From an uncultured virus (IMG/VR IMGVR_UViG_3300019885_000016) (taxonomy: Duplodnaviria > Heunggongvirae > Uroviricota > Caudoviricetes), in IMG/VR virus record IMGVR_UViG_3300019885_000016: 64,000 nt of DNA. One strand, given 5' to 3'. Position numbers and translations under genes: made by a program. This document shows positions 2,337-46,775 of the stretch, in pieces. Positions within the stretch are counted from its first letter, which is position 1, and each line of letters starts with the position of its first letter. The notes under the pieces were generated by a model. That model was not told the origin of the DNA and made no database searches. It saw nothing but the letters and a program-made list of their open reading frames with translations.

Positions 2337-3377
2337 TTAAGCGGTTTTCTCTTCCTCTGTGACAATCTTGCGGCAAAGCGTCACGGAATCCACCGCTTTA
2401 CGTCTCATCTCAGGCGTGGCGTGGGTATACTTGGCAGTCATACGCGCGCTGCTATGTCCCAATAGTGACTGTATGGCTGTTTCATTGAATCCTTGCTCTG
2501 CTAAACGGGTTGCGAAGGTGTGACGCAGATCGTGGAAGCGGCAATCAAATACCTTTGCGTCCTTTAGAGCTTTCCTGAACTGCTTTTCAAACCACGAAGT
2601 CTCAAACCCTCTCCCGAACAATCTCTCACCCGAAGATTCTTCCAGAAGTAATCGAACGACTTCGGACGCTTCACTATTTAGCGGAATGACTTTCTTCTTT
2701 CTTTCCTTTGTCCTCTCAGGCGGTAAGACTATTTCATTTGATTCAAGGTTCACTTCAGAGCGTCTTAGCCCTAAGATTTCGTTCAGCCTCATTCCCGTCA
2801 GTAAGCCAAGATCGAACACAGGAATGAGAGCCGGGTTTAGATGCTCGCGTATCCTCACTTCTTCATCTTCAAAGAGGTATCTTTCGCGCTGTTCGCCCTG
2901 TAGGAGCCTTTTCACCTTAGAGAGCGGGTTATCATTCGTGTAGCCGTTCTCTATCGCCAGAGTGAAGATGCGGTTAAGCACGGCCAAGTCCTGATTGACT
3001 GTCGAGGCTTTACGAACCCCGCGATTTGTAGGAGTCTCGCGCCTCAGTTTTTTGAACTTCTCTAAGAGCATGGGTGAAATCTGTTGAAACGTCCTCTGAC
3101 TGAAGAAGTCACAGAAGACTTTGCATTTCTGCTCATCCTCTTTCCACTTCTTTCTATTAGCCCTACAGTATGGCTTGAACACCTCTTCAACAAATGCAGA
3201 AAAGAGCGTGTTCCTGTTGTCACGCCCATATCTGCCTTCGTAGATTGACTGCCTGACTTGCGCCTCTACCTTTAATGCCTGTTGTTTGTTTTGAGCCTCT
3301 GGAATAGAGCCGCGATACCTGACCCTGCGGATCATAAGGTCAAATTGCCAGCGACTCTTGCGTTTCCTCACTGTCAT
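2337..3377 (-). CDS. int: Tyrosine recombinase / phage integrase
   Basis: TGMRLNE, FHDLRHTFAT, LGHSS, KYTH catalytic motifs; RBS AAGGGAG before ATG 3377. Confidence 0.97.
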   Translation of the reverse strand: MTVRKRKSRWQFDLMIRRVRYRGSIPEAQNKQQALKVEAQVRQSIYEGRYGRDNRNTLFSAFVEEVFKPYCRANRKKWKEDEQKCKVFCDFFSQRTFQQISPMLLEKFKKLRRETPTNRGVRKASTVNQDLAVLNRIFTLAIENGYTNDNPLSKVKRLLQGEQRERYLFEDEEVRIREHLNPALIPVFDLGLLTGMRLNEILGLRRSEVNLESNEIVLPPERTKERKKKVIPLNSEASEVVRLLLEESSGERLFGRGFETSWFEKQFRKALKDAKVFDCRFHDLRHTFATRLAEQGFNETAIQSLLGHSSARMTAKYTHATPEMRRKAVDSVTLCRKIVTEEEKTA

Positions 3378-3597
3378 AGATTCTCCCTTTCCGGGTCGCG
3401 CCGTAAAGGAGGGGCGCATCATATTGAAGTGCGGCGCGAGAATCAATCTCTTTCAGGGCAAAGGCGGGAATCATTGAAACCGACTGACCATCTACAAGGA
3501 AATAGTATCGCTCGCCAAGCCATGCTATTGCTGCAACTTTCCCGCGAAAGCCGTTGTAGTCCACCCACGTCCCAAGAGGTAGTAGTTCGTCTTTCAT
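3340..3597 (-). CDS. Phage hypothetical protein
   Basis: ORF coupled to the excisionase gene. Confidence 0.6.
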   Translation of the reverse strand: MKDELLPLGTWVDYNGFRGKVAAIAWLGERYYFLVDGQSVSMIPAFALKEIDSRAALQYDAPLLYGATRKGRIYDSEETQESLAI

Positions 3598-10410: not shown

Positions 10411-11232
10411 TTACTCTGTTATGTCCAGCCAGCGACTTCCTTGTGTTTTGAATCTGATACAAGCTTCAACACAGATTTCAGCCGCAAGGGATAGAATCTT
10501 GTCGCGCTCGCTGGCTGCATCGCTGGCTGCGCGGGCTGCACAGCTGGCTGCGCTGGCTGCATAGCTGGCTACGCGGGCTGCAGCGCGGGCTGCACAGCTG
10601 GCTGCGCTGGCTGCACAGCTGGCTGCGCGGGCTGCACAGCTGGCTGCGCGGGCTGCATCGCTGGCTGCACAGCTGGCTGCGCGGGCTGCACAGCTGGCTG
10701 CGCGGGCTGCAGCGCTGGCTGCACAGCTGGTTGCGCGGGCTGCATCGCTGGCTGCACAGCTGGCTGCGCGGGCTGCATCGCTGGCTGCACAGCTGGCTTC
10801 TTTCGTCCCTTCCTCCTCGCACTTGTTCGCAGCATCGCGCAGTGCTTTTTGGTGTGTCTTATCAGGATGGACTTTCGCGGCTACGCGCAAAGACAAAGGA
10901 ACGATGCGACGAATCACTTGCTCAGAGACGTAAGTAATCCATGCGACCTCGTCAACACCCGTGCTGCCGAGTTGAGCTATAGCCGCACGCCGCATCCCTT
11001 TTGTGCGCGCATCGTTTGTAGACCATTGAGCATCATTGAGGCCGATCTTGTATGTGCGAATCACCGGCGCAACGCACTTCGGTTTATCGCCATGCTTATA
11101 TCCGAGTGCATAACAGATTGCAGCTTCTACACAGAATTTACCCGGCTCTGGCACGCCCAATCCCGCAACCAAACCTTTGTCCACTACTTCTAAAACTTTT
11201 CGTGCGTCGCGTTTTGTTAGATTTGTGCTCAT
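10411..11232 (-). CDS. First gene of the leftward operon; contains an Ala-rich tandem repeat
   Basis: AAGGAG RBS; (AASC/AASD/AAR)n region. Confidence 0.8.
   Translation of the reverse strand: MSTNLTKRDARKVLEVVDKGLVAGLGVPEPGKFCVEAAICYALGYKHGDKPKCVAPVIRTYKIGLNDAQWSTNDARTKGMRRAAIAQLGSTGVDEVAWITYVSEQVIRRIVPLSLRVAAKVHPDKTHQKALRDAANKCEEEGTKEASCAASDAARAASCAASDAARATSCAASAAARAASCAARAASCAASDAARAASCAARAASCAASAASCAARAAARVASYAASAASCAARAASDAASERDKILSLAAEICVEACIRFKTQGSRWLDITE
10509..10797. repeat. In-frame tandem repeat of mixed 9- and 12-bp units
   Basis: GCTGGCTGCACA, GCTGCGCGG and GCTGCATCG units. Confidence 0.9.
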
Positions 11233-11319: not shown

Positions 11320-11347
11320 ATTATAGCAAAGTTTGCAAGAATTGCAA
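11320..11347 (-). promoter_or_regulatory. Leftward early promoter with overlapping candidate operator
   Basis: Minus strand TTGCAA-16-TATAAT with extended TG; TTGCAA-N3-TTGCAA at 11333-11347. Confidence 0.75.
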
Positions 11348-11527
11348 AGCCCTTTCGTAAAGAAATGTTTTTATACCGATTTTTGCTAGGAAATTTGAGG
11401 ACTATTCAGAGTTTGCGTTTTGTTGGAGTGGGTATTAGATGTGTGAGGCAAAAAGCAGTGTAATAATAAATGCGCCAACCTTCACGGCATTGCCTTTTCT
11501 TTGCGAGATTTGTGTTAGGAACAAATT

Positions 11528-11794
11528 TTATTCACAGTACCGCCAATAGGCCGGACGATACCCTTGCTCTTGAGCTTTCCTCTGTGTGGTGTAGAATCCT
11601 TCTCTCGTTCGTCCATACCACTGTGAGCCGGGACACCAATAGATTCCAGATCGAGTATTTACCCAGACCTGTACGTTTGGATTGCCTTGCCTCTGCGTGG
11701 TGACTTCTGCGCTGGCGCTCTTGAATGTCGCCGGAGCGGTTGAAGTACATGCAAGGGCGATTGAAAGGAAGAGAATTGAGAGCAGTTTTTTCAT
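11528..11794 (-). CDS. Small exported protein/lipoprotein with VWVNTRSGIY..PGS.WYG.T domain
   Basis: Signal peptide with ALAC lipobox-like sequence; Ada-metal-binding-like GYRPA ending. Confidence 0.75.
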   Translation of the reverse strand: MKKLLSILFLSIALACTSTAPATFKSASAEVTTQRQGNPNVQVWVNTRSGIYWCPGSQWYGRTREGFYTTQRKAQEQGYRPAYWRYCE

Positions 11795-12204
11795 GGCGAG
11801 CTACCTTTCTTACTTAGAACGAACGCGAGGCTTTGATTGACTCGAACGAACACTAATTCTACTTGAACGGGGCGATCTGGAAATTGGTAAGTGAAGCTAA
11901 ATACCTCTGTCGGTCTGTTGCTATTTAGAAATTCAGTGAATCTACCTTTGAATTGTCTTACATCCGAACAAGGCGCTATTTCGGTAAAGAAGTTTCGACC
12001 AATAACATCTTGCGCGTGGTGGTCTGATAGTTCTTCTTCCGCGCGATTAAATTCCAGAATCTTTCCAGAGGCATCTAATTCAATTGCGCCATAAGGAAGC
12101 TCATCCAACTGCTCTGCTGTTAGAGAGGGAACACTCAAGGCTTTCCTATAACACTCTTCGCAGATTTTCCCTTTAGACGACTTCCCACACCACGCGCAGG
12201 TCAT
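11791..12204 (-). CDS. pyp: Photoactive yellow protein (PYP)-family PAS domain with N-terminal CxxC-CxxC zinc finger
   Basis: Gapless match to PYP: QLDELPYGAIELDASGKILEFNRAE...VIGRNFFTEIAPC; Cys69 and Glu46 equivalents retained. Confidence 0.88.
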   Translation of the reverse strand: MTCAWCGKSSKGKICEECYRKALSVPSLTAEQLDELPYGAIELDASGKILEFNRAEEELSDHHAQDVIGRNFFTEIAPCSDVRQFKGRFTEFLNSNRPTEVFSFTYQFPDRPVQVELVFVRVNQSLAFVLSKKGSSP

Positions 12205-12875
12205 GCGGCGTCCTCTGCTACTGCCACCTTCGGCAGATCAATCGTCCTTATCACCTTGACGAGAACAGCGTAAGGCTCAACCTTTTTTCGAGGGATTCTC
12301 ACAGTCTCGTAATCTTCATTCTCCGGCTTTAACTCAACCTTGTTTCCGCTCTGATGCCAGCGCTTCAGCGTAGCCTTGCGGTCAATGCCCTCTCTGATGT
12401 AAGCAACAACTATCTGATTTTGAGGTTCAGCCGGCGGGTCTGCCACAATAATAATGTCGCCATCTTGAATGTTGGCGTCCTTCATGCTGTCGCCAACGAC
12501 ACGTAAGGCGTGTGCATTGCGAGTTCCCGCAATGTCGGACTCAAAGACGTAGATAGTCTCAGCATCATCAATCGTCTCAATTGGCTTTCCCGCCGAAATA
12601 CGACCTTTTAGATGCAACGGAACTACGCGCGGGCATCGCTCATCTTCGGGCGGCTCAAACAGTTGCTTGTCCTTACGCGAGGCAGCCGCGCCCCGCTCCA
12701 TGAGCGCGCGTGATACCTCAGTAATTGTCCGCCGGTCTTTCTTCACCCAATACTCAATTACTTCGTAAACGTCATCGGGTACGCGAAAGGCCGGGACTGT
12801 TTTATTAAGCCCCTTCGCCACAAGCGCAACATTCTCAGAGTTTGTAGCTGTAGACAAGGAATGTTTTGTTTGCAT
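12201..12875 (-). CDS. Prophage repressor: RHH-like N-terminus plus LexA/CI S24 autopeptidase
   Basis: ISAG cleavage site, GDSM serine, ATLKR lysine; N-terminal AFRVPDDVYEVIE...RRTITEVSRALMERG. Confidence 0.9.
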   Translation of the reverse strand: MQTKHSLSTATNSENVALVAKGLNKTVPAFRVPDDVYEVIEYWVKKDRRTITEVSRALMERGAAASRKDKQLFEPPEDERCPRVVPLHLKGRISAGKPIETIDDAETIYVFESDIAGTRNAHALRVVGDSMKDANIQDGDIIIVADPPAEPQNQIVVAYIREGIDRKATLKRWHQSGNKVELKPENEDYETVRIPRKKVEPYAVLVKVIRTIDLPKVAVAEDAA

Positions 12876-12887
12876 ATAAAATACCTC

Positions 12888-12915
12888 TTGCAATATTTGC
12901 AAATCTGTGCATAAT
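12888..12915 (+). promoter_or_regulatory. Rightward early promoter with overlapping candidate operator
   Basis: TTGCAA-16-CATAAT; TTGCAA-N3-TTGCAA at 12888-12902. Confidence 0.7.
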
Positions 12916-12926
12916 CGGAAATCGAC

Positions 12927-13109
12927 GTGAGGAAAGATAAAGACAAAAAAGAGCCAGAGCCGCGATTGACGGTGACTCTACCAGCAACGCGGGTGACAGA
13001 AGATGTCGCAGCCTTTCTTGAGCGCAAGCGACAAGCTGAGCGTCGCCACAAAATAAGCGACACAGTAAGAGCCGTTCTGGAAGAGGCGGCAGAGCAAAGC
13101 GCAGCATGA
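12927..13109 (+). CDS. Cro-position ribbon-helix-helix regulator
   Basis: Divergent from the repressor; ATRVTEDVAAFLE...KISDTVRAVLEEA. Confidence 0.7.
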   Translation: MRKDKDKKEPEPRLTVTLPATRVTEDVAAFLERKRQAERRHKISDTVRAVLEEAAEQSAA

Positions 13110-15742: not shown

Positions 15743-16195
15743 GTGAGACACGAACGACCTCTTACACCTGAGATTGAGAACATCCTGCGCGACCGGACTA
15801 AAGTGATGGCGCATGAGATGGACGTTGACCGCTCATACTTAGACGGCATTTTATCAGGATACAGAGCAGACCCACTTGCCCACCTGATACCGATATTCAA
15901 AGCAACCTGTCGAACTGATTTATCACTAGCCCGCCCTGTATTAGACCGTCTTAATTCCATCTATGAAGCGGAAGTCGGAAGAGAATCGAAAAGGTCAGAC
16001 TTCCATCTTCAATTAGGCATGGCGATGGATAGATACAGCAAGATCATAAACAAGTTGGGCGTAAGACGTATCAACGAATTGAGCAGAGAAGAGAAGGAAG
16101 TAATAAGAGGTTGGACGGCTTCAATGTCCAGCTTCACTCAGATGGCAGAGGTTTTTGTAAGTGATTCTTTACAGGAAGAAATGGTGAGCAAGTGA
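15743..16195 (+). CDS. Phage hypothetical protein, possibly regulatory
   Basis: HTH-like KVMAHEMDVDRSYLDGIL. Confidence 0.55.
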   Translation: MRHERPLTPEIENILRDRTKVMAHEMDVDRSYLDGILSGYRADPLAHLIPIFKATCRTDLSLARPVLDRLNSIYEAEVGRESKRSDFHLQLGMAMDRYSKIINKLGVRRINELSREEKEVIRGWTASMSSFTQMAEVFVSDSLQEEMVSK

Positions 16196-17646: not shown

Positions 17647-17829
17647 TTAGAAGCGAGTTTCTAACAGACCTAAACCAATGATTTCTACAACGTCAAAAGT
17701 ATTAACGCTGGTTGAAACCGAAGCACGTTGCGGTGGTGGTGGGGTGTATCCGGGGTCGTCAATGATTCCCGCGAAGGCAGGGACGCACAGAAGACCCGCC
17801 AGCACCAAAGAGGCGAGTGTTTTTCGCAT
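17647..17829 (-). CDS. Small secreted pro-peptide
   Basis: AAGGAG RBS; MRK plus hydrophobic core plus AFA signal-peptidase site; GIIDDPG, Pro-rich linker, amphipathic tail. Confidence 0.75.
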   Translation of the reverse strand: MRKTLASLVLAGLLCVPAFAGIIDDPGYTPPPPQRASVSTSVNTFDVVEIIGLGLLETRF

Positions 17830-17876
17830 GGCTTGTACTCCTTTCTTCGGAGATAGATAGAACCCTAAATTTTATC

Positions 17877-18512
17877 ATGCTGAAGACTCAAACAGAGAAG
17901 CCGGTTATCCGCGACAGGATGGACGAGGCCATTAAAGAACGCTCGGAAGGCCAGCCTTTGGAAGCGCTCGCCACGCTTGAATTAAATCAGGACTTACTTG
18001 ATGAGGGCAGCGATCTGGAAAAAGGAAAGTTTCACAATGGGCGCGGTGGCGCGCTCTACGAATTAGGCCATTACCAAGATGCGTTAGACGAATTTCTCTC
18101 TGCCGGTTTCCACTATCAGCAATGCGACGAACTCAGGCGTGGAATAACAGAGAACAATATAAGCAACTGCTATCTGAAACTCGGAAGGATTAAAGAAGCC
18201 AAAGAGCACGCCTTCAAAGCAATATCTATTTTTACTCTACACAATCACGCTAACTGGCTGGCTCAAACTCAAACAACACTAGCCAGTGTTTTCATTCAGG
18301 AAGGCATTTATTTTGAGGCTTCGCAGATGGCTTCTATTGCCTATTCCGCGCTGAGAGATAGTGATGACGCGCGGGCTAAAAACGAAGCATTAACCACATG
18401 GTATCTAGCCGTGTGGTGTCACTTCTTAGCGACGATTGTAGGTTTATCTTGTGAGGGGGCGCACACGGCGGGCAGGGTTGGGCAGTCCTGTCCGCTTGTA
18501 GAGGTCAAATGA
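17877..18512 (+). CDS. TPR-repeat protein (candidate peptide receptor)
   Basis: HNGRGGALYELGHYQDAL, ENNISNCYLKLGRIKEA, LASVFIQEG repeats. Confidence 0.85.
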   Translation: MLKTQTEKPVIRDRMDEAIKERSEGQPLEALATLELNQDLLDEGSDLEKGKFHNGRGGALYELGHYQDALDEFLSAGFHYQQCDELRRGITENNISNCYLKLGRIKEAKEHAFKAISIFTLHNHANWLAQTQTTLASVFIQEGIYFEASQMASIAYSALRDSDDARAKNEALTTWYLAVWCHFLATIVGLSCEGAHTAGRVGQSCPLVEVK

Positions 18513-30902: not shown

Positions 30903-31316
30903 ATGAATTATGAACCTCTTGTTGAAATTACGCCCGGTAGTCTTGTCGCCGGGCTTGCGGCTGTTGCCTTGCTCGCGCTCGTCGTCGCTTACTTTTGGGT
31001 TCAATTCAAAAAAGGCGTTGATGACGCCGAGAAGACCGCTCTCAATAATTGGAAGGAGTTAGCCGCATCCGAGCAAGCTAAATATGCGGCTCTTGTTGCT
31101 GAAAAGGCAGGGCTTCAAAAGAGGTACGAACAGTTAATGGTTGCCAACGAAGAATGCGAGAAGTTGCGAGACGACTTTGCCAAGCACGTGTTAAGAGCGC
31201 GGTCTAGGGAGGAGAAATACCAGCGATGTATAAATCGTTTGGAATTTGAACTAAAGATTGAGCCGACTGATTTTGATGACCCGACCATGCACATTACATC
31301 GAGTCCTAATAGTTGA
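30903..31316 (+). CDS. N-terminal TM plus coiled-coil protein (possibly lysis-associated)
   Basis: Single TM then heptad-like region. Confidence 0.6.
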   Translation: MNYEPLVEITPGSLVAGLAAVALLALVVAYFWVQFKKGVDDAEKTALNNWKELAASEQAKYAALVAEKAGLQKRYEQLMVANEECEKLRDDFAKHVLRARSREEKYQRCINRLEFELKIEPTDFDDPTMHITSSPNS

Positions 31317-31701
31317 TGATGCGCCGGACATTCTCAACATGCTGGCTACGACGCTCCGGCATAAAGGCTATGAAGTTTCGGCGGTCGAGCGTGGCTTAGA
31401 TGCCGTGATTCAATTCATGGAGTCAATCAAAGAGGGGCGCTGCTTCGACGTGCTTGTTTTAGATTGCGCTCTACCGCAGATGGACGGCTTTAGCGTTGCC
31501 GAGCATATAAGGCTCACCGAATCTCAAGGTGTGACGGATTGTCATCCCTGGATAGCAGCATATACGGCGTACAGCAAGACGGTTGAGAAGACTACGTTGA
31601 TTGAGAAGGCGGGAATAGATGCTTACTTCGTCAAGGGTGAAGATGAGGGAAAGCTCGTTGAGCAGATAGCTAATTGGCTGTCTGAGGTGAAGACGTTGTG
31701 A
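31276..31701 (+). CDS. Stand-alone response-regulator receiver (CheY-like)
   Basis: VLIVDD, VLVLD (phosphoacceptor), PQMDG, YTAY, AYFVK. Confidence 0.92.
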   Translation: MTRPCTLHRVLIVDDAPDILNMLATTLRHKGYEVSAVERGLDAVIQFMESIKEGRCFDVLVLDCALPQMDGFSVAEHIRLTESQGVTDCHPWIAAYTAYSKTVEKTTLIEKAGIDAYFVKGEDEGKLVEQIANWLSEVKTL

Positions 31702-35333: not shown

Positions 35334-38300
35334 ATGTCCGTTCCCCAAAACATCATAGACGAGATGCAGCGCATAGGCGTTCGTCCTCCACAGCCAAGCG
35401 GCCTATCAACCATTGACCAATTGGCCGAAGAGGAAGGGCTTGCGCCTCGTCATCGTCAGGAGATAGCGGCAATAGGAGGCCAAGAAAGCGGGCGCGTCAC
35501 GAATGAAGCTCGCCCGGATTCTCACGCATCTGGTGGATTGCAGGTAATTCCCTCCACAGGACTGCATTATGTTACACCGGGAGAGTGGGCTACCCCACAA
35601 GGTAAAATCAGAGCAGGGCTGCGCTACTACAAATCAATCCTTAATGCCTTTCCGGGCGATGATCAATTCGACCAGAGAGCAGCAGCCTATCATGCTGGTA
35701 TTGGTGCTGTGCAGCACGCAGTTGCTAGTGGTCAGAGATTGCCGCATACGGAAGATAGGTATGTCAGCCGACAGCTAGGACGACCTTACTTCACTGATAC
35801 TGATTATGTACCGACCGTCTTAGCTCGCTTCAACGGCTCTAACGGAAACTCAAAGCCTCCGCAGAATGTTCAGGACGAAATAGCGCGAATCAGTGGCGCG
35901 CCTCTTTCAGGCTCGGCGCATGAAGGCCAACAGCCTCAAGCTACGCCACCGCCCATCGCTACTGAGATAGCACGAATCAATCAATCCTCGACTAGCGCAC
36001 AGGCTGGCCTGCAAACACAGCCAACCCCTTCAACCGAGGCAAATCAAGTGACAGGCCAACCCTCTCCTTTTACTGTTCCCACGTACACTACTCGTAAACG
36101 TAGGGCGACTGACGAAGGCGAGCCGGAGCAGGGCACACTTGAGCCAAATCAAGTCACGTTCACGCCCAGCCAAGCTGTCATCGCCACACCGGGAACGACC
36201 CTTCCGACAAGGGCTGCACAGGGACAGCCGACATCTCAACCGGTAGCATCCACCGCCTCGCCTATCACGACTCAATTAACACCTGAGCAGGGCTACGTTG
36301 TAGGCACAGCACTGGGAGAGGCGGCAGATAGACAGAGGCACGAGACATTTGACCAAGCGGCTTTTGAGCAATGGCGTCGTAGAAATCGCATTCCTGTGCC
36401 AAAGACGGATGAAGAAAGACGGAACACTCAGACTCTCTTCGCCAACGTTCAAAATAGCGACCCAGATGCCGTAGCTACGCTCAATAAATATCAGGCTGAC
36501 TTGCGACGACGGGACAGGATTCAAAGACGCAACGAGCCGATTAGACGACAATCCCAAGCAGGGAGCGCAAATGGCGGCGAGCCGAACTTAGGCGAAGTCA
36601 CAGATGCTGACTTCGTGAAATACCTCGGTACGCTACCTGGGGAGTCGGCGGGCTGGTCAAGGCCACAACTAATCCAAGCTGCATTCACCGTTGCGCGACG
36701 CAAGCAAGCGGGAGAAGCCCAGTCTGTTCCCGCCTTGGCGGACATGGAAAGAGCAGCTTTGCGAGAGCATGCAGGTTTGCCTGCATCTCCACAGACGAAT
36801 AACCGCCCACGCTCGCCTCTTGCGGTGCCTCCACGCCCTTCTATTGATTTCCGTAGGCCAAATAGACCATTTGAATTTACAGCAAGGGGAGAAGAGGCTG
36901 CGCGCGTACAGGCCAGCGGGCAGCAAATCCGAGCCGCACTACAGTTGAATAGCGTTCGTGACCAAGTGCGCCAACAGATGTCGCACGAATGGGAATATGA
37001 TCCGCGCAATCATAACGCGATGCCTCTTGATGACGGTGCAATTGAGCGGCGCATAAATCAGATGAGAGAGGCAACGCAGCACGAAGAGGAGTTGCGAGCA
37101 TCGCTTAGCCCCGAACAGCACCAACAGGCGCAGGAGATTGCTCAAGGGCTACAGCGTCGCTTTTCAAATGAACCCGGTTGGCTCTCAGCTTTGGATACAG
37201 GGCTGGACATCTCTGCGAGCAACACCGCAACCCTCATTCCAGGGGTCTGGAGAATTATCGGGGACGTAACAGGGAGCCAGCGCATTAAACAATTGGCGCG
37301 CGAGGGCGAACAGTATTTCGCTATGCGTCGTGAAGCTCACGATATTTCGACTAGGGGGCAAACCGACACTCAGAGCGTTCTAACAAACGGCGCGCGTGTA
37401 GTCTCTGACGTTGTTCAACTCGCGGCACTCAGCGAGGTGGCGGGGCCAGTCAAAGCGATGGCGGCGCTTGGCGGGCTTGAGTCACTTGGAGGCGGGCAAA
37501 GTTACGGGCGTGCAGCAATGGAGACTGTGAAAGGCGCGGGCTATGGCGCAATGTTCGGGGCGGCTGCACGCATTCGTCCTTTTGCCTCGACAGAAGGCTT
37601 GCTTGCGCGCGGTGGTGACTTGGCGGCACATCTCGGAACGGTAGCAACAGGCACGTATGCGATTGAGCGGGCATTCGGTTCATCTCATCAAGAAGCCATG
37701 CGCGCCGCGATGACGAATACGATTCTCTCTGGCGTATTGCAATTTACGGGCACGGTAGGTGCTGGTGTCTCGGAAGAGGCGCGCATGGCGAGTGAAGGGC
37801 GCGGCGCAGTAGGCGAGCGTTTACCTGAAAATGTTCGCGCAGCCATCACTCGCGCTCGCGGGCGCGTGCCTGTGTATGTGCAGGAGGAAAGCGGCGGTGA
37901 GGGTGGCCGCATTGGAGTAGTAAACGCTGAGCCTGGCGAAAACGGTTCCGGTAGAATCGAACACTTCCGCCCTTTAACATATGAAGAGGTAGGACAGGTC
38001 AATCCAAGTCGTTATGTCACTGTTTCGCCGGAAGAGTTCGACGCAATGGTTGAGACTTTCGACTCGTCGCGTGGTGAGCAGATTCTTAACCAAACGCCTG
38101 ACCTTGAACCCGCGCAAGGCTCGATGCCACAAGAACCTGGTGCGACTGCGCTGGTACGCAGAGAAGGAGCATCCCCCAATGAAGCACCTACGCCGAATCA
38201 AGCGCCGTCTGCGCCGCAACCGACGCCGGAAACACCTGAGACGATAAATGCTCAAATGGAGGCGTTCGTCGCCGGTCGGAGAAAAGCAATTCTAGTTACG

Positions 38301-41300
38301 CCTGGAGAAGAGATGCCGCCTTACCCGCGCGACTTGGCGGCGACCGAAACAAGCGTTGGCACATTCATCCACAACCCGCGAGAGATAACGCCCGCCCAGA
38401 TTAAGAGCATGGTTAATGACGGTTCTTATGGTTCTCTCTTAGGTCACGTCGAACCGCCAAGCCAGAGCACAACGCAAGTTGTAACGGCTCGTCATCCAGA
38501 GACAGGGGCAGAGATTCAATCTTCTTATGTCTCACCTGATAATGTTCCCGAACAGACTGCTCGCTATGAAGAGATGTATCCGCGTGCTCATATAGAGCAC
38601 GGGGGGGCAGAATTAGAGCGGCAAGTCTTAAGTGAACGCCAGCAAGTAAGCACAGTCCCCGCAAGAGAGTCCGGGCGTGAACTGCTTGGTACGAATGAGC
38701 AGATCAATCGTGAACTGCAATCACTCTCAGATGAAGGCTTACCGCTTTCAAGTGAGATACGAGGCTTGCAATCAAGTCTTTCTCGCGGTGCTACGCCAGA
38801 GATTCAAAAGATTATTGAGAATAATATTTCTCAGAAGCAATCAAGATTGGGTGAGATACAGGCAAGGCAAGCATATCTTCGCGCTGAATTACAGTTGAGA
38901 GCAGAAGGCCAACCTACTGATAATCTTCCAGACCTTAGCGAAGGAGCGATAAATGCAACAGATATTTCCAGTGAACACGCTCCCGAAGCGAGTGCGGCGC
39001 AGGATAGGCAGGAGGTTCATCCGGCGGGGCAAGGTGAAGAAGTTCAGCCGAGTGACGCGGGAACTGAGGGAGTATCTTCTCAGCCACCAGGCCGCATCAC
39101 TCCAAAGCAGATAGTTCGCCACTCTGACCCCAACATTGACGGTGGAGAGGTCGTTGGACGCACGCCCGATGGACGCCTTAAAGTCAGAAATAATGAAGGC
39201 GGCATATCAATAGTTCAAGACCCGCGCAAGCAGGGCGGCAACAGAGAGGCGGCGCTGACAACAAGGCATGGCTTGGTGATTAAGCCGAAGAGCGAGTCAC
39301 TGTCAGAATCTCAGGGACAGAAGCAGGCACAGGAAGTTATTGCTATACCGCCCGCCGCAGGAACCACAAGTGCGGTCGCCCCTGAAAATATTGAAGAGAC
39401 CAGTCCTGCGTTGCAGAAAGCAGTTAAGCATATCACCCGCAAGCCGCGCCGTAGGCGGCAAGCAGATGAAACCCGCCACAGCCTTGCGGAGTTCGTCATG
39501 CTCTCAGGCGGCATCCGACCAGACAGAGATAATGCCAACGCTGGCGAATTAAAGCGTCTTTCAACGAAATCTCTCGGCGGTCGCTGGATTGGTCTTGTCA
39601 ATAAGAACTCTTCACACACTGCCGAGCAGATGGCTACACATGCCGCAGAGCTGGGCTACCCGGTCACGGAGGGCGGCGGCTATGCCGTGCGTGGAAGAGA
39701 GTACGCATCGAATGTTGATCCGAACTTCCTGAGCATGGCCGAAGATGATGCACGGGGAATTCGCAAAATATATTCGTCGGCTAATGAGGCTTTCACCGAA
39801 GCCGACCTTGAAGAATTGACACCTGAGCAAAAGGAAGACTTGGACACGGAATTGCGTTTCCTTGCAGATGCTCATGTGGTAAGATTATTGAAAGAGGTTG
39901 AGAACGGAAATGAAGATGAAGGAATCCGAGAAGAACTCTCCATCCTCGCAAGTAACTACGGCCTCCCTGATGAAGCGGTTGACGCAAACCTCTCGTATGC
40001 TAGAGACGCATGGCTTGAACGCGAGGGGCTACTTGAGGCAAGCTTTGAACAGGGTGAAGAGGATACGTCCTTTGCCTTCGGCTCAAACCGAGAACCTACC
40101 GAAACAACCACTCCGCGGAAATTAACCGCACCAGAGCCAGAACAATCAGATGCCTTTGCTCGGTTACGCAATCTTGCGGCAGATTCGTGGAAACTCACGA
40201 AGAGTGATTACATTGCCCAAGATTGGAAGATTAGGTCTGAAGAATTTCCGGGTAGTGATAGTTTTATAGCTCGGAAGAATGCTGGGGAGAGGCACGAGCA
40301 GCAGGTTAAACAAGCTGCCCGTGAAGGCTTGTATGAACAAGCTATTAGTCGTGGCGAGTTGACTTCTCAAGAGGCTCTCAATGCTCTTGAAAGTTTAGGC
40401 GCAAATCCACCACAGTTCATCCAAAAAGCAATTAAAGCGATTGCGGATTTAACGGAGTCCCCGCTCAAGATGGCACGGCCTGAGATGCGAGAGGCTACGC
40501 CCGAAGAACGCAAGGCACTCAAGATTCCTCCTGCATGGACAGATGTTCACATTACTGATGATCCGAACGCGCGCCTTCTCGCTGTAGGGCGAGATGGTAA
40601 GGGTAGAACGCAACGACTCTACAGTGCTGCCCACACCGAAGCACAACTCGTTGCAAAATTCATCCGTCAACGCGAATTCAATTCGGCATTACCGGCAATA
40701 ATGGAGCAGGTTGAGCGGGATGCGGAAGGTGGAAATGAAGAGGCAAGCGTACTTCGTTTAATTGCTTTAACAGGCTTTCGCGTCGGCAGCGAAGCGGACA
40801 CAGGGGCGAAAATAAAAGCGTATGGGGCGACCACTTTAAGGGCAGAGCATGTTAAAATAGAGGGCGATGTTGTTCACTTTGATTTCATTGGAAAGCTTGG
40901 CGTCAGGCAGCAACACAGTATTCGTGACTCGCAATTAGCGCAGGATTTACAGGGGAGAATGACGCGCGGTGGGGCGTTGTTCTCTACTAATGATACGAAG
41001 GTTCGCAACTATCTAAATCAAATCGCTGGCGGTAAATTCTACAAGGTTCACGACTTTAGAACGTGGAACGCAACTGAAGCGGCACGTAAAGCGATTGAAG
41101 ATATTCAGCCTCCGACAAATGCGGAAGAGTATTGGCAGAAGCGAGATGATGTCGGAGACATTGCCGCACGTAAGATTGGGGACACTCGCCAGATTGCGCT
41201 TGATACTTATATTGACCCACTTGTGTTTGAAGACTGGCGCGAGCGTGCAGGAGTAGAAGAGAATGCGACAAGACCAAGACAAACGAGACGAAAAACCAGT

Positions 41301-44300
41301 GACATTCAAAGAGAAGATGGAACGGATGAAAGAACATTTCGAGACCAACCACTTCGACGTGGAGTTGAAGAAGGGCGAGCCGCGCGAGGAAGTGGAGAAG
41401 AAGTTAGCGGAGCGCTTGTAAAGTCAGAAGACTACTCAGAAGCGGTAAAGAACTTCTCTCTACAAGCATCTTCGCAGAGTGGTAGAATAGAGTCCGTGAA
41501 GGAGTATCAGCCCGGAGCGCGATTGCCTTCCGAATATGTTTACCACCAGACGACGCCTGAAGCACTAGAGGCAATCGAGAGAGAGGGATTTAGTGCGGGG
41601 GCATTTACAGACAGACCGTTTGACTTCCACTTTACAGGTGTGCGCCCCGTTTGGGTTGCTATAAAGAAGTCCGAGCTTCCCAACGTTCAATCACATCAAT
41701 ACGGGTCTGTCATCGCACACGAGACGAGTTTTGAAGCATGGCCTGAGTACGGGCGTGCCGAAACCCCACCAATCCCACCAGAGAACATCTATCTCGTTGA
41801 TAGGCGCGGCAGGGTGATTCGTAGGCTCGGCGCATCAAAACAACTGATTGAGAGAGGTGTAGATGCCTCTCTGAAAATGGCGCAACAGAATCAGGCGTTG
41901 CGCTCCGTTGAAAACTCTGCTGAACTCGCCGCGTCTGCCTCCACTTCTCTAACTGCCTTAGAAGACAATGAAGTAGTCGGCAACCCTGAAGCCGCAGAAC
42001 TCATCCGTCGCGTTATAGATAAATCTTCCGCCGACATAGACGGCCTCACTCTTTTGCCTGAAGAGTCCGCAGAAGTAATCCGCGATCTTCGTGAAGCCGC
42101 AACGCACATGAAGTCTTTGGGGTGGGACGAAGAAGATATAAAACCCTTACGTGATTTTATTGGGAATCTGATGCGCGCTCGCCGCGCCACACCATCAAAG
42201 ATTGTCGTATTCAAGCAGGATGTTGCCCACGCCACCGAGCACGAGTACATGCACGAAGGGCAGTATGTAGGCTCTGGCATGAAGCATTACTCTGAGCATC
42301 TGAGCGCAGAGGATTTCGCGGACTTAGGAAAAACGAACGACATCAAAGCTTATGATGATTATTTCAAAAATACTCCGTCTGAGCGCAACGTTCCCGTTGA
42401 AAGAAAGGTTACTGAATTAGTAGCTTTCTACGCTGCGGGTGATTATCAGAAGTTCGGGAGAACATTTGAGCAAGCGAGGGAATTTCTCAAAAAGTATTTC
42501 AGGGCGTATATTAAGCAGAACGGAAGAGAGAGCGTAGAAGCTTTCAGAAAGCAGCACACGTATGTCAGACAAATCATCGAAGAAGAGAAAGCAAGGGCTG
42601 AAAATCCTTCCGCCGAAGAAAGACCCGTTAGCGGAAGCCTACAAGATTTACAGGGAGAACGAGAACCAGCCCGAGGAAGTCCTGAACCGCCAGATGGACG
42701 CGCACCTTCGACGCCACGCGATGAAGCAACAAGCGAAACGCTAAAGCCGCGCTCTCTACCTTCTACCCTTCGTGAGCGTGGCATTGCAGCCGCAGACTCT
42801 CTATACGAAATCTATCCTAACCGCGCTGCAATCGCAGACGCTAAATCCCTACTTGAAAAATTAGGATGGGAGGCATCCGTCTCTCTAATCAAGAGTGGTC
42901 AGGCTCTCGGCGCAGAGCACATGGCTCTCGCTAAGATTCTCTCTCGCACACTTCTGTCCCAAGCATCTGAAATCTCTTCGACTGATGAAACGGAGGCTGC
43001 TCGTCTTCGTAGCGAAGCGCTCTCTATCACTTCGACAATCTCTGCTGCTGCGACTAAGGCTGGACAGTTCAATCAAGCTGTACAAGCAATAGAAACGTCC
43101 GTTGAAGACGTTATGGCTGCTGCTCAAAGAATTGTGAGTGAGCGTGGTCGAGAGTTGTCGCCTCCTGAAGCCGCAAGAATCCACCGAGCAGGGGAAGAGT
43201 TAGAGCGCACAAACGCTGAGATGGAAGTGGCTGCGTCCGGGTCTGCCGATGCTCGCGCTCAGATTGAAGAGAACAGGAAGATGCGCGGCTGGGCTGAAGG
43301 GGGCCAACTAACAATGGCAGAGATAGACACCCTGCGTAAACGATTAGCTAACCTCCGAGCAAAAGAGAAAACAAGAGAACGGCGTATTGATGAGTTGGAA
43401 GGACGCATCCCGCCGCATGTGCGCAAAGTCTCAGCGCGTAAAGGCGGGCGCTCTCAGGTTCGTCAGAGGGCTGCTGAGTCCCTGGCTTTTGACGAATTAG
43501 ATTTGATGGCGCAGGTTAAATCTGCTCTAGGGATGGGTGGACATTTGAAGATGGCGCAAGCCCGTGCGCTAACTGATACGGAAGCTTTTAAGCGGTGGTT
43601 TGGAGATTCTAAAGTAGTTGATGAAGAGGGCAAACCGCTTGTTTTATATCATGGCACACGCGGGGACTTTGATGAGTTTAGCGGAGAGAGACGTATTTAC
43701 CTGACAACAAATCCTGAGCAAGCGGCGCTCTACGGCAATACCATGATGCCGGTGTATCTGAAGGCTGGCAGTATAAGGGAGGTGGGAGAAACAGCAGGCC
43801 GGTGGTGGAAGGATAAATTTGATGCTGTAACTTCTGCCTATAAACAGTTAGACAGCCGCCGAGTTGATGTGGTGCTTCTTAGGAATACCGCCGACCCCCC
43901 TGTGTTTAATAAGGGCGAAAAGCAAATCTTCGGGGATATTTATGTTGTTAACGACCCAACTCAAATCAAATCAGCAACAGGCAATCGTGGAACATTCTCA
44001 CTAGATGACCCGAACATTCTAAAAATGGCTCAACCCGCCGAGCGTCTTTCTGAAGGATTCACAGGAGAGACACTTCAAAACCTTGCGCACCTCGGAGCCT
44101 TGCGCATCCTTCGCGGCCAATCTTCCGTCGAAGAGTGGAAGCAGGGGATGATTTCAGACTTTGGCTCTCAGATAAAACCTCAAATAGACAGCCTCCACGC
44201 TGAATCGGTCAAAGTCGTTCGTGAGACTTTAAGGCAGGCGAGACGTGATGCTGAACTGGAAAGAATCCGCTCCCGTCCCGGCAATGAAGAGTTGTCTCAA

Positions 44301-46775
44301 GGTGAGCTTGAAGAGATTGCAGACGAGGAGCGCAACGCGAAGAGACGCGCTCAATTAGCCAGAACAGAGCACGAGCGCGCGGCCAAAGCTTACGAGTCAG
44401 GTCAGAGAAAGGTTGAGCGTGAGACTACGAGGAAGGAAGCCCGCACAGTCTCAAGCGTAGAACTCCGCTCTAAAGCTCTGGCTGAAGCTATTGGCAGAAG
44501 TGCCTCAAGCGATATAGATACAATCGCAGCCGCGAAACTTGCTCAACCCAACATGACGCCCGAACGCTTTAACGCGGAGATGTCGCGTGAGCACAACTTG
44601 AAAAGCAATGCTCTACGGGACGCATTCACCGAAGGCGCGCGTGTTCTTGAATCTGCCAGAAACGAGATAAAAGAGTCGAAGCGACTTGCGGAGGCATTAA
44701 GGCAGGCAGAAAAGTCCGGTGAAGCAGACCTGAACCTTGCGATGATGCGACTGCACGAGGCGAGAGCGCAAAAGCGCGATGCTGAACGCAAGGTTGCACG
44801 CGAACTTGCGAAACTCAAGCAGAGTAAATTCACCCCCACACTGGCGGCTTTGTTGGCTCTGGCTCGTGATGGTCTTCTATCTGCTAAGGGACTGCTCCGA
44901 ATAGCTTCAGGCATGTCCGTTAAGCAAGCGGGAGACCTTCTTGCCTCTTTCGGTGAAAGTGCTATTGATACCACTGCATCAAAGGCTCTGGGCTTGCCTC
45001 GAACAACTGCGTCACCTTCTCTTAGCGCAATAATTAACACTCTCATTAGCCTCCCCCGCGCTGGCGGAAGAAGGGTTAAGGCAACCATGCAAGGCAAGTC
45101 GTCCGACTTGATGCCCGCGCATGATCCCCCAACAGAGAACCCTTACGTCAACGTTGCTGCTACGATGATGCAGAGGTTATACGCTTCTAAGGAAGTGCTC
45201 TTACGCTCCTTTGCCCACCCTCTTGCTAAGAATGCCAGAGCGAGAGTCTTTGCTTTGAATGATTTCAGGGGTGGTGGGATTAAGCGAAGCGAAATCGGGC
45301 AGAGGACAAACGAGTACGTGAACGGGACTCAACAGTTCTCCGGTTCAAATATTGAAGTAGCTCGTGATCTGGCAAAACAGCAAGCAGAGTATGAAGCGCG
45401 TAGCGGTGCGATAAGCCCAAGCGTGGTTGAAACAAGAACGAGGGTTTTAGCCACACATCCTGCGGACTTAATTGATGCCCTAGCTATGCAGGACACTGAA
45501 AAACAGGTCTACGCGAATCCCTCTTTATTATCAGAGGGGATGCAGGGAGCGAGAAGCGGAATTTCTCGAAGAAACCCTGTAGGCGGGAAAGTCTTTGACA
45601 TCGCTTCTACAATAGTTCTGCCTTTCGTCAAGCGTCCTGCTAATAGTATTACAGATGCCCTCTACACTTATACAGGTGTGCGCATACCCGTTGAGGCCGC
45701 AAAGATTATAAATGAGAAATGGACGCAAGGCAGAGTCGGAGCAGACCAACGCAGAGCCTTCAATCGCGCGGTCGCAAGGGGCGCAATCGGATGGGCATTA
45801 TTCGGGCTTGGAGCATTGTTGGCAGCATACGGACTGATGACACCTGTTTCAGATGATAGGTTCGACCCGACGAGCGGAGCGATTCACGTTGGAGGTCGTT
45901 ATTGGAAAGTTGCCAATATTCCGTTCGTAGGATGGCTCTTAGGCATGGGCGCTACTTATCAGATGAAAGGCGCGCACGCAGTTCCTAAAGCACTACTTAA
46001 TATGATTCTTGAGCACCCTCTACTTCGCGGCATCTCTGACATGGCAGATGCTTTTGATGAAGCAAAGCAAGCAGTGCAAGGTGGCGTGTCTGCTTCAAAA
46101 CTTGAAATGGGTGCGGGTCACATAGGGGCGCGGCTAATCCCTTCACCTTTGGCTATAATCGCAGAAGGAATGGACACGCGAGAGCGTAAACAAGTGAATC
46201 CGTCAGACCCGTTCCTTTATAGGATACCGGGAGCACGCCAGACACTAGAGCCTCGCACGGATGGGCAGGGCAATGAAATCCAGAAGAGCCATTTATCAGT
46301 CGTAGACCCGTTCTCTTCCGTCTCTGATGAAAATGTAAAACCGCTTTCACCTGCGATGGAACTTCTTCGAGAAATTCAGCGCGCACGCGACCCGAACCCA
46401 ACCCCCGCGACCGAAACGGAACGTCTTCATCGTGATGCAATCAACAAACTCGCGGGTGAGTTGAAGGAAGGCCAAGACGTTCGAGAGGATTTCAAGCAGT
46501 TAATCCGGCAGGGAGTCTTAAAAGCCGGTGATTTCAGACAGATTCGCGAGCGTGCTGCGTTGACGGATTTACAGAGAGGCATTGAAGACTTATCGCTGGA
46601 AGAGGCTGAGAGGGTTTACAGCGAAGTCACGCCGGAAGAGCGTGCGCAGCTTGAGCCAATACTGAAAAGGAAGCGGAAGCGTGCATTAGCAGAGGAAAGA
46701 AGAGCCTCAAGGCGTTCTCTAAAGATGTTGACGCCTCAATCTGTACAAAGAAGGGCGATGCAGGTTCAAAGATGA
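35334..46775 (+). CDS. Giant polyvalent ejection protein: lytic transglycosylase, topoisomerase IB, two ART-like domains, HExxH metallopeptidase motif
   Basis: QESG/GGLQV/AYHAG; IPPAWTDV...DFRTW...YIDP; YHQT; HEYMH; WFGDSKVVD...LYHGT...PTQIKSATGNRGTF. Confidence 0.88.
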   Translation: MSVPQNIIDEMQRIGVRPPQPSGLSTIDQLAEEEGLAPRHRQEIAAIGGQESGRVTNEARPDSHASGGLQVIPSTGLHYVTPGEWATPQGKIRAGLRYYKSILNAFPGDDQFDQRAAAYHAGIGAVQHAVASGQRLPHTEDRYVSRQLGRPYFTDTDYVPTVLARFNGSNGNSKPPQNVQDEIARISGAPLSGSAHEGQQPQATPPPIATEIARINQSSTSAQAGLQTQPTPSTEANQVTGQPSPFTVPTYTTRKRRATDEGEPEQGTLEPNQVTFTPSQAVIATPGTTLPTRAAQGQPTSQPVASTASPITTQLTPEQGYVVGTALGEAADRQRHETFDQAAFEQWRRRNRIPVPKTDEERRNTQTLFANVQNSDPDAVATLNKYQADLRRRDRIQRRNEPIRRQSQAGSANGGEPNLGEVTDADFVKYLGTLPGESAGWSRPQLIQAAFTVARRKQAGEAQSVPALADMERAALREHAGLPASPQTNNRPRSPLAVPPRPSIDFRRPNRPFEFTARGEEAARVQASGQQIRAALQLNSVRDQVRQQMSHEWEYDPRNHNAMPLDDGAIERRINQMREATQHEEELRASLSPEQHQQAQEIAQGLQRRFSNEPGWLSALDTGLDISASNTATLIPGVWRIIGDVTGSQRIKQLAREGEQYFAMRREAHDISTRGQTDTQSVLTNGARVVSDVVQLAALSEVAGPVKAMAALGGLESLGGGQSYGRAAMETVKGAGYGAMFGAAARIRPFASTEGLLARGGDLAAHLGTVATGTYAIERAFGSSHQEAMRAAMTNTILSGVLQFTGTVGAGVSEEARMASEGRGAVGERLPENVRAAITRARGRVPVYVQEESGGEGGRIGVVNAEPGENGSGRIEHFRPLTYEEVGQVNPSRYVTVSPEEFDAMVETFDSSRGEQILNQTPDLEPAQGSMPQEPGATALVRREGASPNEAPTPNQAPSAPQPTPETPETINAQMEAFVAGRRKAILVTPGEEMPPYPRDLAATETSVGTFIHNPREITPAQIKSMVNDGSYGSLLGHVEPPSQSTTQVVTARHPETGAEIQSSYVSPDNVPEQTARYEEMYPRAHIEHGGAELERQVLSERQQVSTVPARESGRELLGTNEQINRELQSLSDEGLPLSSEIRGLQSSLSRGATPEIQKIIENNISQKQSRLGEIQARQAYLRAELQLRAEGQPTDNLPDLSEGAINATDISSEHAPEASAAQDRQEVHPAGQGEEVQPSDAGTEGVSSQPPGRITPKQIVRHSDPNIDGGEVVGRTPDGRLKVRNNEGGISIVQDPRKQGGNREAALTTRHGLVIKPKSESLSESQGQKQAQEVIAIPPAAGTTSAVAPENIEETSPALQKAVKHITRKPRRRRQADETRHSLAEFVMLSGGIRPDRDNANAGELKRLSTKSLGGRWIGLVNKNSSHTAEQMATHAAELGYPVTEGGGYAVRGREYASNVDPNFLSMAEDDARGIRKIYSSANEAFTEADLEELTPEQKEDLDTELRFLADAHVVRLLKEVENGNEDEGIREELSILASNYGLPDEAVDANLSYARDAWLEREGLLEASFEQGEEDTSFAFGSNREPTETTTPRKLTAPEPEQSDAFARLRNLAADSWKLTKSDYIAQDWKIRSEEFPGSDSFIARKNAGERHEQQVKQAAREGLYEQAISRGELTSQEALNALESLGANPPQFIQKAIKAIADLTESPLKMARPEMREATPEERKALKIPPAWTDVHITDDPNARLLAVGRDGKGRTQRLYSAAHTEAQLVAKFIRQREFNSALPAIMEQVERDAEGGNEEASVLRLIALTGFRVGSEADTGAKIKAYGATTLRAEHVKIEGDVVHFDFIGKLGVRQQHSIRDSQLAQDLQGRMTRGGALFSTNDTKVRNYLNQIAGGKFYKVHDFRTWNATEAARKAIEDIQPPTNAEEYWQKRDDVGDIAARKIGDTRQIALDTYIDPLVFEDWRERAGVEENATRPRQTRRKTSDIQREDGTDERTFRDQPLRRGVEEGRAARGSGEEVSGALVKSEDYSEAVKNFSLQASSQSGRIESVKEYQPGARLPSEYVYHQTTPEALEAIEREGFSAGAFTDRPFDFHFTGVRPVWVAIKKSELPNVQSHQYGSVIAHETSFEAWPEYGRAETPPIPPENIYLVDRRGRVIRRLGASKQLIERGVDASLKMAQQNQALRSVENSAELAASASTSLTALEDNEVVGNPEAAELIRRVIDKSSADIDGLTLLPEESAEVIRDLREAATHMKSLGWDEEDIKPLRDFIGNLMRARRATPSKIVVFKQDVAHATEHEYMHEGQYVGSGMKHYSEHLSAEDFADLGKTNDIKAYDDYFKNTPSERNVPVERKVTELVAFYAAGDYQKFGRTFEQAREFLKKYFRAYIKQNGRESVEAFRKQHTYVRQIIEEEKARAENPSAEERPVSGSLQDLQGEREPARGSPEPPDGRAPSTPRDEATSETLKPRSLPSTLRERGIAAADSLYEIYPNRAAIADAKSLLEKLGWEASVSLIKSGQALGAEHMALAKILSRTLLSQASEISSTDETEAARLRSEALSITSTISAAATKAGQFNQAVQAIETSVEDVMAAAQRIVSERGRELSPPEAARIHRAGEELERTNAEMEVAASGSADARAQIEENRKMRGWAEGGQLTMAEIDTLRKRLANLRAKEKTRERRIDELEGRIPPHVRKVSARKGGRSQVRQRAAESLAFDELDLMAQVKSALGMGGHLKMAQARALTDTEAFKRWFGDSKVVDEEGKPLVLYHGTRGDFDEFSGERRIYLTTNPEQAALYGNTMMPVYLKAGSIREVGETAGRWWKDKFDAVTSAYKQLDSRRVDVVLLRNTADPPVFNKGEKQIFGDIYVVNDPTQIKSATGNRGTFSLDDPNILKMAQPAERLSEGFTGETLQNLAHLGALRILRGQSSVEEWKQGMISDFGSQIKPQIDSLHAESVKVVRETLRQARRDAELERIRSRPGNEELSQGELEEIADEERNAKRRAQLARTEHERAAKAYESGQRKVERETTRKEARTVSSVELRSKALAEAIGRSASSDIDTIAAAKLAQPNMTPERFNAEMSREHNLKSNALRDAFTEGARVLESARNEIKESKRLAEALRQAEKSGEADLNLAMMRLHEARAQKRDAERKVARELAKLKQSKFTPTLAALLALARDGLLSAKGLLRIASGMSVKQAGDLLASFGESAIDTTASKALGLPRTTASPSLSAIINTLISLPRAGGRRVKATMQGKSSDLMPAHDPPTENPYVNVAATMMQRLYASKEVLLRSFAHPLAKNARARVFALNDFRGGGIKRSEIGQRTNEYVNGTQQFSGSNIEVARDLAKQQAEYEARSGAISPSVVETRTRVLATHPADLIDALAMQDTEKQVYANPSLLSEGMQGARSGISRRNPVGGKVFDIASTIVLPFVKRPANSITDALYTYTGVRIPVEAAKIINEKWTQGRVGADQRRAFNRAVARGAIGWALFGLGALLAAYGLMTPVSDDRFDPTSGAIHVGGRYWKVANIPFVGWLLGMGATYQMKGAHAVPKALLNMILEHPLLRGISDMADAFDEAKQAVQGGVSASKLEMGAGHIGARLIPSPLAIIAEGMDTRERKQVNPSDPFLYRIPGARQTLEPRTDGQGNEIQKSHLSVVDPFSSVSDENVKPLSPAMELLREIQRARDPNPTPATETERLHRDAINKLAGELKEGQDVREDFKQLIRQGVLKAGDFRQIRERAALTDLQRGIEDLSLEEAERVYSEVTPEERAQLEPILKRKRKRALAEERRASRRSLKMLTPQSVQRRAMQVQR

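Follow-up and report, generated by a model that had tools for sequence, protein, structure and literature searches.

A photoactive yellow protein homologue with a putative zinc ribbon in the immunity operon of probable Blastocatellia prophages as a predicted sensory input to the lysis-lysogeny switch

In phage lambda, the immunity operon cI-rexA-rexB consists of the repressor gene followed by co-transcribed genes, and it lies between two early promoters under operator control. The question which cues other than DNA damage induce prophages is described as open in PMC10432266 (Silpe et al. 2023), where SOS-independent TF-smORF modules, pairs of a transcription factor and a small ORF, provide a damage-independent induction route beside a cleavable repressor. 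Another phage system that brings an outside cue to the lysis-lysogeny decision is VqmA of vibriophage VP882, a PAS sensor akin to the host receptor; this protein, which combines a PAS domain with a C-terminal HTH, has an autoinducer as ligand and acts as a separate activator via the antirepressor Qtip. The photoactive yellow protein (PYP) family is defined by Cys69, and its natural output partners are largely unknown according to the family survey (Xing, Gumerov and Zhulin 2022, PMC9664959); the light signal of PYP reaches the N-terminal cap, as stated in PMC4477167. A term search of the main text of the family survey gave no hit for 'phage', 'zinc' or 'repressor', and in its neighbourhood table Blastocatellia do not appear as a row and neither LexA nor S24 is mentioned, the four table cells with the word 'phage' referring to distant neighbours of cellular PYPs. 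We also found no report of a phage PYP, or of a phage photoreceptor tied to lysis-lysogeny, in a literature search that reached a minor part of the subscription papers. Here we describe a gene for a PYP-family domain fused to a putative zinc ribbon (Zn-PYP) in the immunity operon of a prophage. It is predicted to be a RecA-independent sensory module feeding the phage lysis-lysogeny switch, a reading to which we assign a probability of roughly one half.

The window, i.e. the whole stretch of 64,000 nucleotides that was analyzed (IMG/VR record IMGVR_UViG_3300019885_000016), is an integrated prophage joined to host DNA. A host VWA-type gene (1-1095) flanks the prophage, the prophage integrase (2337..3446, minus strand; PHROG integrase E=3e-63) adjoins host DNA, helicase and terminase subunits were also recognized by PHROG matches, and a single contig crosses the host-phage boundary at even depth. 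No att repeat was found within the 64 kb. Five genomes were searched for the flanking host gene. Four of them, which belong to the class of Pyrinomonadaceae, contain orthologues with 59-66% identity, and Geothrix gave no match; hence, the host probably belongs to the Blastocatellia. The only sequencing runs listed for the source are of soil DNA from one sample. Contigs assembled from two runs of one soil sample, which is possibly the source sample and thus not independent, show zero sequence differences to the locus, and one soil contig covers both pyp and the repressor gene.

The immunity region of this prophage is lambda-like in layout. The repressor gene (12201..12875, minus strand; 224 aa from the ATG) encodes an S24 autoprotease domain (Pfam E=6e-21; LexA 1.6e-23; also a PHROG repressor match) with an Ala95-Gly96 site, Ser130 and Lys171 as in cleavable repressors of the CI/LexA type, the roles of these residues being presumed from LexA. 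Its N-terminal domain is possibly RHH-like, with Pfam RHH_5 at E=0.06, below the cut-off, PDB profile matches to CopG, ArtA and TraM at E 0.3-0.9, and Atlas structure matches that carry RHH names under the bar. A divergent gene for a protein of 60 aa (12927..13109, plus strand) is judged to be Cro-like from its position, and the protein is 39% identical to the N-terminal domain of the repressor over the aligned stretch. Twelve bases upstream of the repressor ATG, an operator-like palindrome TTGCAA-N3-TTGCAA (12888..12902) overlaps the -35 box of the rightward promoter (12888-12915), and a second operator-like site (11324..11347; perfect at 11333-11347, one mismatch at 11324-11338) covers the leftward early promoter-like site (11348-11320, 10/12 consensus). 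Allowing up to one mismatch, the motif occurs three times in the window versus 0.36 expected, a number reached in 0/100 shuffles, and matches only over these two promoter-like sites; it was picked by eye from the sites themselves before its count was tested. The same motif is absent from all eight other PYP loci checked. The third gene of the operon (11528..11794, minus strand) encodes a predicted lipoprotein of 88 aa with a 'sunset' domain (NCBIfam NF051437, 28.7 bits, cut-off 27) and a lipobox read by eye, and it is followed by a weak terminator-like hairpin (11473..11489, minus strand; two in the region versus 2.4 expected by chance). Repressor, pyp and lipoprotein genes are joined by ATGA twice: the pyp ATG overlaps the repressor stop (12201-12204), an overlap that the initial annotation had noticed without naming the strand, and the pyp stop overlaps the ATG of the lipoprotein gene (11791-11794). 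These overlaps together with the operator layout suggest co-transcription and translational coupling. Compared with the lambda operon, the layout is the same, and the window has a possibly RHH-like repressor plus a Cro-like gene, and a sensor domain is encoded by the first co-transcribed gene.

The pyp gene (11791..12204, minus strand) encodes a protein of 137 aa, in which a ribbon of Cys3, Cys6, Cys15 and Cys18, a helix (residues 16-27) and a PYP core (28-133) follow each other; the translation contains the motifs MTCAWC, CEEC and IAPC in this order, residues 3-18 reading CAWC-x8-CEEC. The ORF encodes a PYP-family domain and not a generic PAS domain. Residues 28-117 align without gaps to residues 18-107 of the Halorhodospira halophila PYP (E ~1e-19); the gap-free match seen in the initial annotation thus stands, while the extent given there, about 18-79, was too short. 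With an offset of +10 in the numbering, C79 corresponds to Cys69, E56 to Glu46, F52 to Tyr42, S60 to Thr50, H62 to Arg52 and Y106 to Phe96, which agrees with all residues named before, namely the retained Cys69 and Glu46 and the changes Tyr42->Phe, Thr50->Ser and Arg52->His, and adds F96Y to them. The family survey asks for the Cys69 equivalent and for at least one of Tyr42 and Glu46 (PMC9664959); in the gap-free alignment C79 takes the former position, E56 is kept, and the Tyr42 to Phe exchange is, according to the survey, tolerated in ~9% of PYPs. An HMM comparison, which had been proposed as a check, gave a match to TIGR02373 photo_yellow with 93.5 bits (E=1e-26), below the curated cut-off of 143.05 of a model that covers ~20% of PYP homologues according to the same survey. 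All 33 of 33 sequence matches in the PDB are PYP or its derivatives. The AF2 model of Zn-PYP (pLDDT 86) has solved PYP structures as best Foldseek matches (TM ~0.70), with E ~1e-10 for PYP versus ~3e-6 for other PAS structures.

The assumed fusion to a zinc finger is borne out as far as the four cysteines are concerned; these probably form a zinc ribbon that binds metal, the Pfam DZR_2 match to this part being weak (E=0.07). An HTH is absent from the 137-aa protein according to the Pfam scan. The longer start of 137 aa is preferred over the database gene call P0002 (115 aa), because 22 of 23 relatives have kept the Cys ribbon, and P0002 was ruled out as true pyp start. The GC content of pyp (0.44) is lower than that of the repressor gene (0.51) and the prophage average (0.50). 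Hence, the window protein shares with H. halophila PYP and the PAS_PYP family the fold, the gap-free core, Cys69, Glu46 and the NFF-x3-APC motif. It differs by being phage-encoded in a repressor operon, with relatives fused to repressor domains, by the exchanges Y42F, R52H and F96Y, by a putative zinc ribbon that replaces the first helix of the cap, and by the lack of an adjacent TAL or ligase gene.

A survey of phage genomes for repressor-pyp linkage, also proposed in the initial annotation, revealed this linkage at nine distinct phage or prophage loci, window included, with two origins of the PYP and additional fusions. The PYP gene lies directly behind a repressor-like gene in seven of the nine (gaps of -4, -4, -4, -11, -20, +9 and +52) and one gene further in the other two, where an IrrE/ImmA-like peptidase gene (L001) or an ORF of 138 aa that is not S24-like by profile (the prophage of genome G280) intervenes. 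Repressor types comprise RHH-like plus S24 (3), HTH plus S24 (1), HTH plus ImmA-like (1) and forms without S24 (4), so that S24 is present in 4/9 and no single domain occurs in the repressors of all nine; the calls for L002, L086 and L089 are weak, based on location, on resemblance to other repressors, or on a PHROG match of 1e-4. The genes downstream vary among the loci, and the position of PYP is kept. Six of the loci (L001, L002, L083, L084, L085, L086) are the true ones among eight motif matches in the IMG/VR scans; the other two, L082 and L087, lie in frames that do not encode a PYP and were discarded as chance matches. PYP-like matches were obtained in 36 of 401 genomes of the class, the two best being prophages in G167 and G286, of which the former is the same sequence as L085 and was counted once. 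The putative capsid gene of the window (55678-57030), named by position and without family match, retrieved 3 of the 401 genomes as query, G280, G384 and G046. G280, also among the 36, has an intact early region with PYP in the immunity operon. In the DNA examined of G384 and G046 an early region is missing, and both are hence uninformative on PYP. Their head-gene clusters (L309 in G384; L314 and L311 in G046) are related to that of the window, and host genes occupy the place of an early region, which suggested remnants or a gene-transfer-agent-like element.

The PYP is not a universal component of such immunity regions, which counts against a role in the switch. It was found within 3 kb of none of 77 distant S24 repressors and near none of five weaker Cro-like matches (four Mu-like prophages and one contig end); PYP accompanies each of the three strong Cro matches, all three having been part of the query. 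The four Mu-like transposable prophages (L324-L327) carry divergent repressor/ner-like pairs with no PYP nearby. A metagenome scan gave 64 loci, three of them with Zn-PYP by pattern. The GenBank phage collection contained no match to Zn-PYP, PHROGs none for the PYP, and in BFVD only PAS folds with at most 18% identity appeared among the matches with E<=0.001.

Further evidence came from a HMMER search against 1.84 billion representatives, in which the best 150 of 1269 matches were examined; 15 of them proved to be close homologues with an additional N-terminal part and a length of 212-317 aa. A repressor-like DNA-binding N-terminus is supported in 11 of these 15, P0012, P0017, P0021 and P0024 standing outside the count. 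Among 16 N-termini tested, the 15 plus the more distant P0043, eight match repressors of the split loci at E<=1e-3, whereas the best of 30 shuffle rounds was 0.006. The N-terminus of P0023 is 44% identical to the window repressor over 99 aa (E=1e-21), P0033 has HTH_3 over the cut-off, P0047 RHH_5 with E=0.001, and the N-termini of P0014 and P0027 link to P0029 and P0047. Hence, at least three kinds of DNA-binding N-terminus are fused in frame to the PYP. A Pfam scan of the 14 proteins with more than ~70 extra residues and of P0021 gave no S24 domain. In the AF2 prediction for P0023 the PYP part is modelled and the N-terminus has pLDDT <55. Nine of the 15 were looked up and are single-member clusters on contigs of 1.2-49 kb; a phage origin of the fused proteins seems probable from their sequences. 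The viral scans for fused forms gave no locus, and a search for longer forms at 556-2000 aa, an uninformative range, gave nothing.

Two readings without a sensory input to induction have to be weighed at this point. Since lambda rexAB is also expressed from a repressor promoter, the PYP could be lysogenic-conversion cargo transcribed in this way. It would then act on host signalling, for example by sequestering the chromophore or the partners of the host PYP-kinase, and play no part in induction, and the fusions would be by-products of adjacency. This would fit with an operon between two early promoters that includes a lipoprotein gene, with host genomes (G167, G286) that own PYP-containing genes, with a G280 copy derived from a host kinase domain, and with freely varying repressor types. 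However, the PYP remains first or second while the downstream genes differ, and accident hardly accounts for a PYP that is joined in frame to three or more kinds of DNA-binding N-terminus and keeps Cys69 and Glu46 in 15/15, which makes the cargo role somewhat unlikely. Alternatively, an apo Zn-PYP might sense nothing and serve as dimerisation or stabilising domain of the repressor. In the fused forms it occupies the place of S24, a domain that also dimerises CI and LexA. The PAS domain of VqmA is likewise needed for dimer formation (10.1101/2021.04.15.439952). A pure scaffold would have no need of Cys69 and Glu46, which are invariant in 23/23, the PYPs of known structure consist of one domain, and no ribbon is present in the G280 copy; we therefore consider a scaffold very improbable.

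The phylogeny of the PYP domains supports a common history of split and fused forms. In a FastTree analysis of 161 domains, eight split Zn forms and the 15 fused forms fall in one clade of 34 rows (support 0.93), which also contains two degenerate long branches and nine proteins of unassigned context. IQ-TREE with 59 chosen rows, in which four fused forms were left out, gave the split and fused forms as a 24-row clade (98/95). In the latter tree, the G280 PYP groups with host PYP-histidine kinases (99/95); it has 57% identity to these kinases versus 34-40% to the phage forms, lacks the zinc ribbon and keeps Tyr42. A single origin of the phage PYPs was rejected (AU p=7e-5, 109 columns), the group having been named after the tree was seen. 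Judged from these alignments there are two origins, one of the nine loci (G280) deriving from the host PYP-kinase lineage. The zinc ribbon as a phage-specific invention was ruled out, because cellular Acidobacteriota PYPs carry it: cellular Zn-PYPs occur outside phages in Geothrix, where the protein of G. fermentans is a clade A member in supplement file 4 of PMC9664959, in Blastocatellia and in Gemmatimonadota, hence the ribbon is older than the phage clade. A degenerate PYP-like protein without Cys69 or Glu46 is widespread in Blastocatellia (L109, L112-L117, L059, L063), often beside Crp-like and receiver genes.

Within the 23 clade members (eight split, 15 fused; median identity 41%), Glu46 and Cys69 are invariant, ten positions being invariant altogether, including the equivalents of Asn43 and Phe92, and the NFF motif is also kept; the four-ligand ribbon is retained in 22/23. 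F96Y is found in 21/23 versus 11/138 of the other matches, Tyr42 is lost in 8/8 split Zn forms and kept in 9/15 fused ones, with F, V, L or M as variants, and position 52 is free. The drift at position 42, the free position 52 and F96Y speak against the switch reading in its PYP-like form and could point to another ligand. The PYP might thus be an input of the switch whose signal is chemical and not light, be it a different acyl-CoA or aromatic acid or a thiol/redox reaction of Cys79 and the zinc ribbon. The clade-wide F96Y and the loss of Tyr42 in the split forms would agree with such a signal, as would the soil habitat, lysogens without TAL or PYP-type ligase (see below), and host PYP-kinase genes beside a menaquinone-pathway gene. 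Against it, the invariant Glu46, Asn43, NFF, Phe92 and Cys69 form the pattern of a chromophore-binding PYP, and Tyr42 persists in the majority of the fused forms and in the G280 copy; we regard this chemical signal as unlikely.

Regarding the supply of a chromophore, tblastn with plant-type 4CL, a PYP-type-ligase-like protein and HAL as queries gave no match in the 64-kb window at E<=0.1, in agreement with the initial annotation, which had not seen a coumaroyl-CoA ligase there. The proposed check of the host for TAL and pCL genes was run on the three related lysogen genomes (G167, G286, G280) and came out mixed: neither TAL nor a PYP-type ligase was found in any of the three, mostly metagenome assemblies in which misses are not absences, while a plant-type 4CL-like enzyme was present in all three. 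TIGR02372 gave only generic C-terminal matches (best ~62 bits), compared with 131 bits in Geothrix, where the match lies beside a second lyase. One aromatic lyase occurs per lysogen genome, HAL over the cut-off in G167 and G286 and a protein with the same motif in G280. The 4CL-like gene is closest to plant 4-coumarate:CoA ligase, the enzyme of G286 (L206 1084-2646) reaching 484 bits with tobacco 4CL2. Such genes occur in 111 of 401 genomes of the class, a tally that includes three unpublished genomes (G301, G203, G362), often in two copies; they are present in 19/36 PYP-positive versus 92/365 other genomes (p=0.0013), an association that is confounded by kinship. The enzyme has Val at the position of tobacco 4CL2 Ser243, which we take to bind the 4-hydroxyl. 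With a plant-like 4CL and without PYP-type ligase and TAL, any chromophore would therefore come from outside.

The gene of the host PYP-histidine kinase is part of a menaquinone (futalosine) pathway cluster in five loci (L099 784-1887, L101, L102, L103, L105). An MqnC-like gene (NCBIfam, 259 bits with the partial ORF of L101) immediately follows it, and the conserved gene that precedes it, which we assume to be MqnA-like, has no NCBIfam match.

Collectively, the data can be combined to the following scenario for a RecA-independent sensory module. In the lysogen, pyp would be co-transcribed and translationally coupled with the repressor gene, the plant-type 4CL of the host would make a hydroxycinnamoyl CoA thioester from scavenged coumarate-like acids, and Cys79 would be acylated with the hydroxycinnamoyl group. 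By analogy to PYP biology, loading and/or blue to near-UV isomerisation may then alter the N-terminal cap, here the zinc ribbon. In the fused forms the cap would adjoin the DNA-binding domain and the Zn-PYP module would replace the S24 protease, and therefore the fused repressor itself would be signal-controlled. In the split forms, the free Zn-PYP might act in trans as co-repressor or anti-repressor beside an intact RecA/S24 route. Since the repressors of the nine loci do not share any one domain, a conserved contact surface on them is unlikely. The complex prediction for a repressor dimer (residues 20-215) with Zn-PYP returned no verdict on their contact (0.00 versus a mark of 0.32). The lysogen-expressed sensor feeding into lysis-lysogeny that was suggested at the outset thus gains from a PYP-family domain in the lysogeny operon of nine loci and from the fusions, while a conserved contact with one repressor domain is doubtful. 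The sensory module is favoured by the constant PYP position across differing repressor types and varying downstream genes, by one clade of split and fused forms with invariant Glu46 and Cys69, by a G280 PYP of separate origin at the same immunity-operon place, and by the 4CL-like gene in 3/3 lysogens versus 111/401 of the class; against it stand the Val at the Ser243 position and the kinship behind the 4CL-PYP link, the missing TAL and TIGR02372 ligase in 3/3 lysogens, and immunity operons that carry unrelated cargo too.

A more specific version, that temperate Blastocatellia phages recruited PYP twice and fused it repeatedly to the repressor instead of the domain for SOS cleavage, obtaining a light-switchable AND gate of hydroxycinnamate uptake and blue/near-UV light, appears doubtful, yet within reach. 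Both versions resemble the TF-smORF modules in the induction route, whereas no pair of transcription factor and small ORF was seen and the module of the window is one sensor domain. Unlike VqmA, the window PYP has a chromophore Cys, a location in the repressor operon and no DNA-binding domain of its own, and its fused relatives carry the DNA-binding part N-terminally, the sensor being part of the repressor. For these phages, the time to leave dormancy may hence be set by light or by a chemical of plant origin. Given a coumarate-dependent cue, the lysis of an abundant soil group would be governed by the chemistry of plant litter and by the light that reaches the soil surface. The fused proteins, single-chain PYP-transcription-factor units of about 210-320 aa, would represent natural optogenetic repressors.

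Some other genes of the prophage should be mentioned. The first gene after the leftward promoter (10411-11232, minus strand) encodes 273 aa with a long, imperfect and Ala/Ser/Cys-rich repeat tract at about 10500-10800 and has no Pfam or NCBIfam match. An ORF of 3813 aa (35334-46775, plus strand) probably encodes a large virion-ejected protein, and similar giant ORFs exist in the G280 and G046 elements. Moreover, the window contains genes for a TPR protein (17817-18512) and a CII-like protein, named by eye (15743-16195), as well as a response-regulator-like ORF (31258-31701); the former two recur rightward in related phages, and the response-regulator-like ORF is also present in G280.
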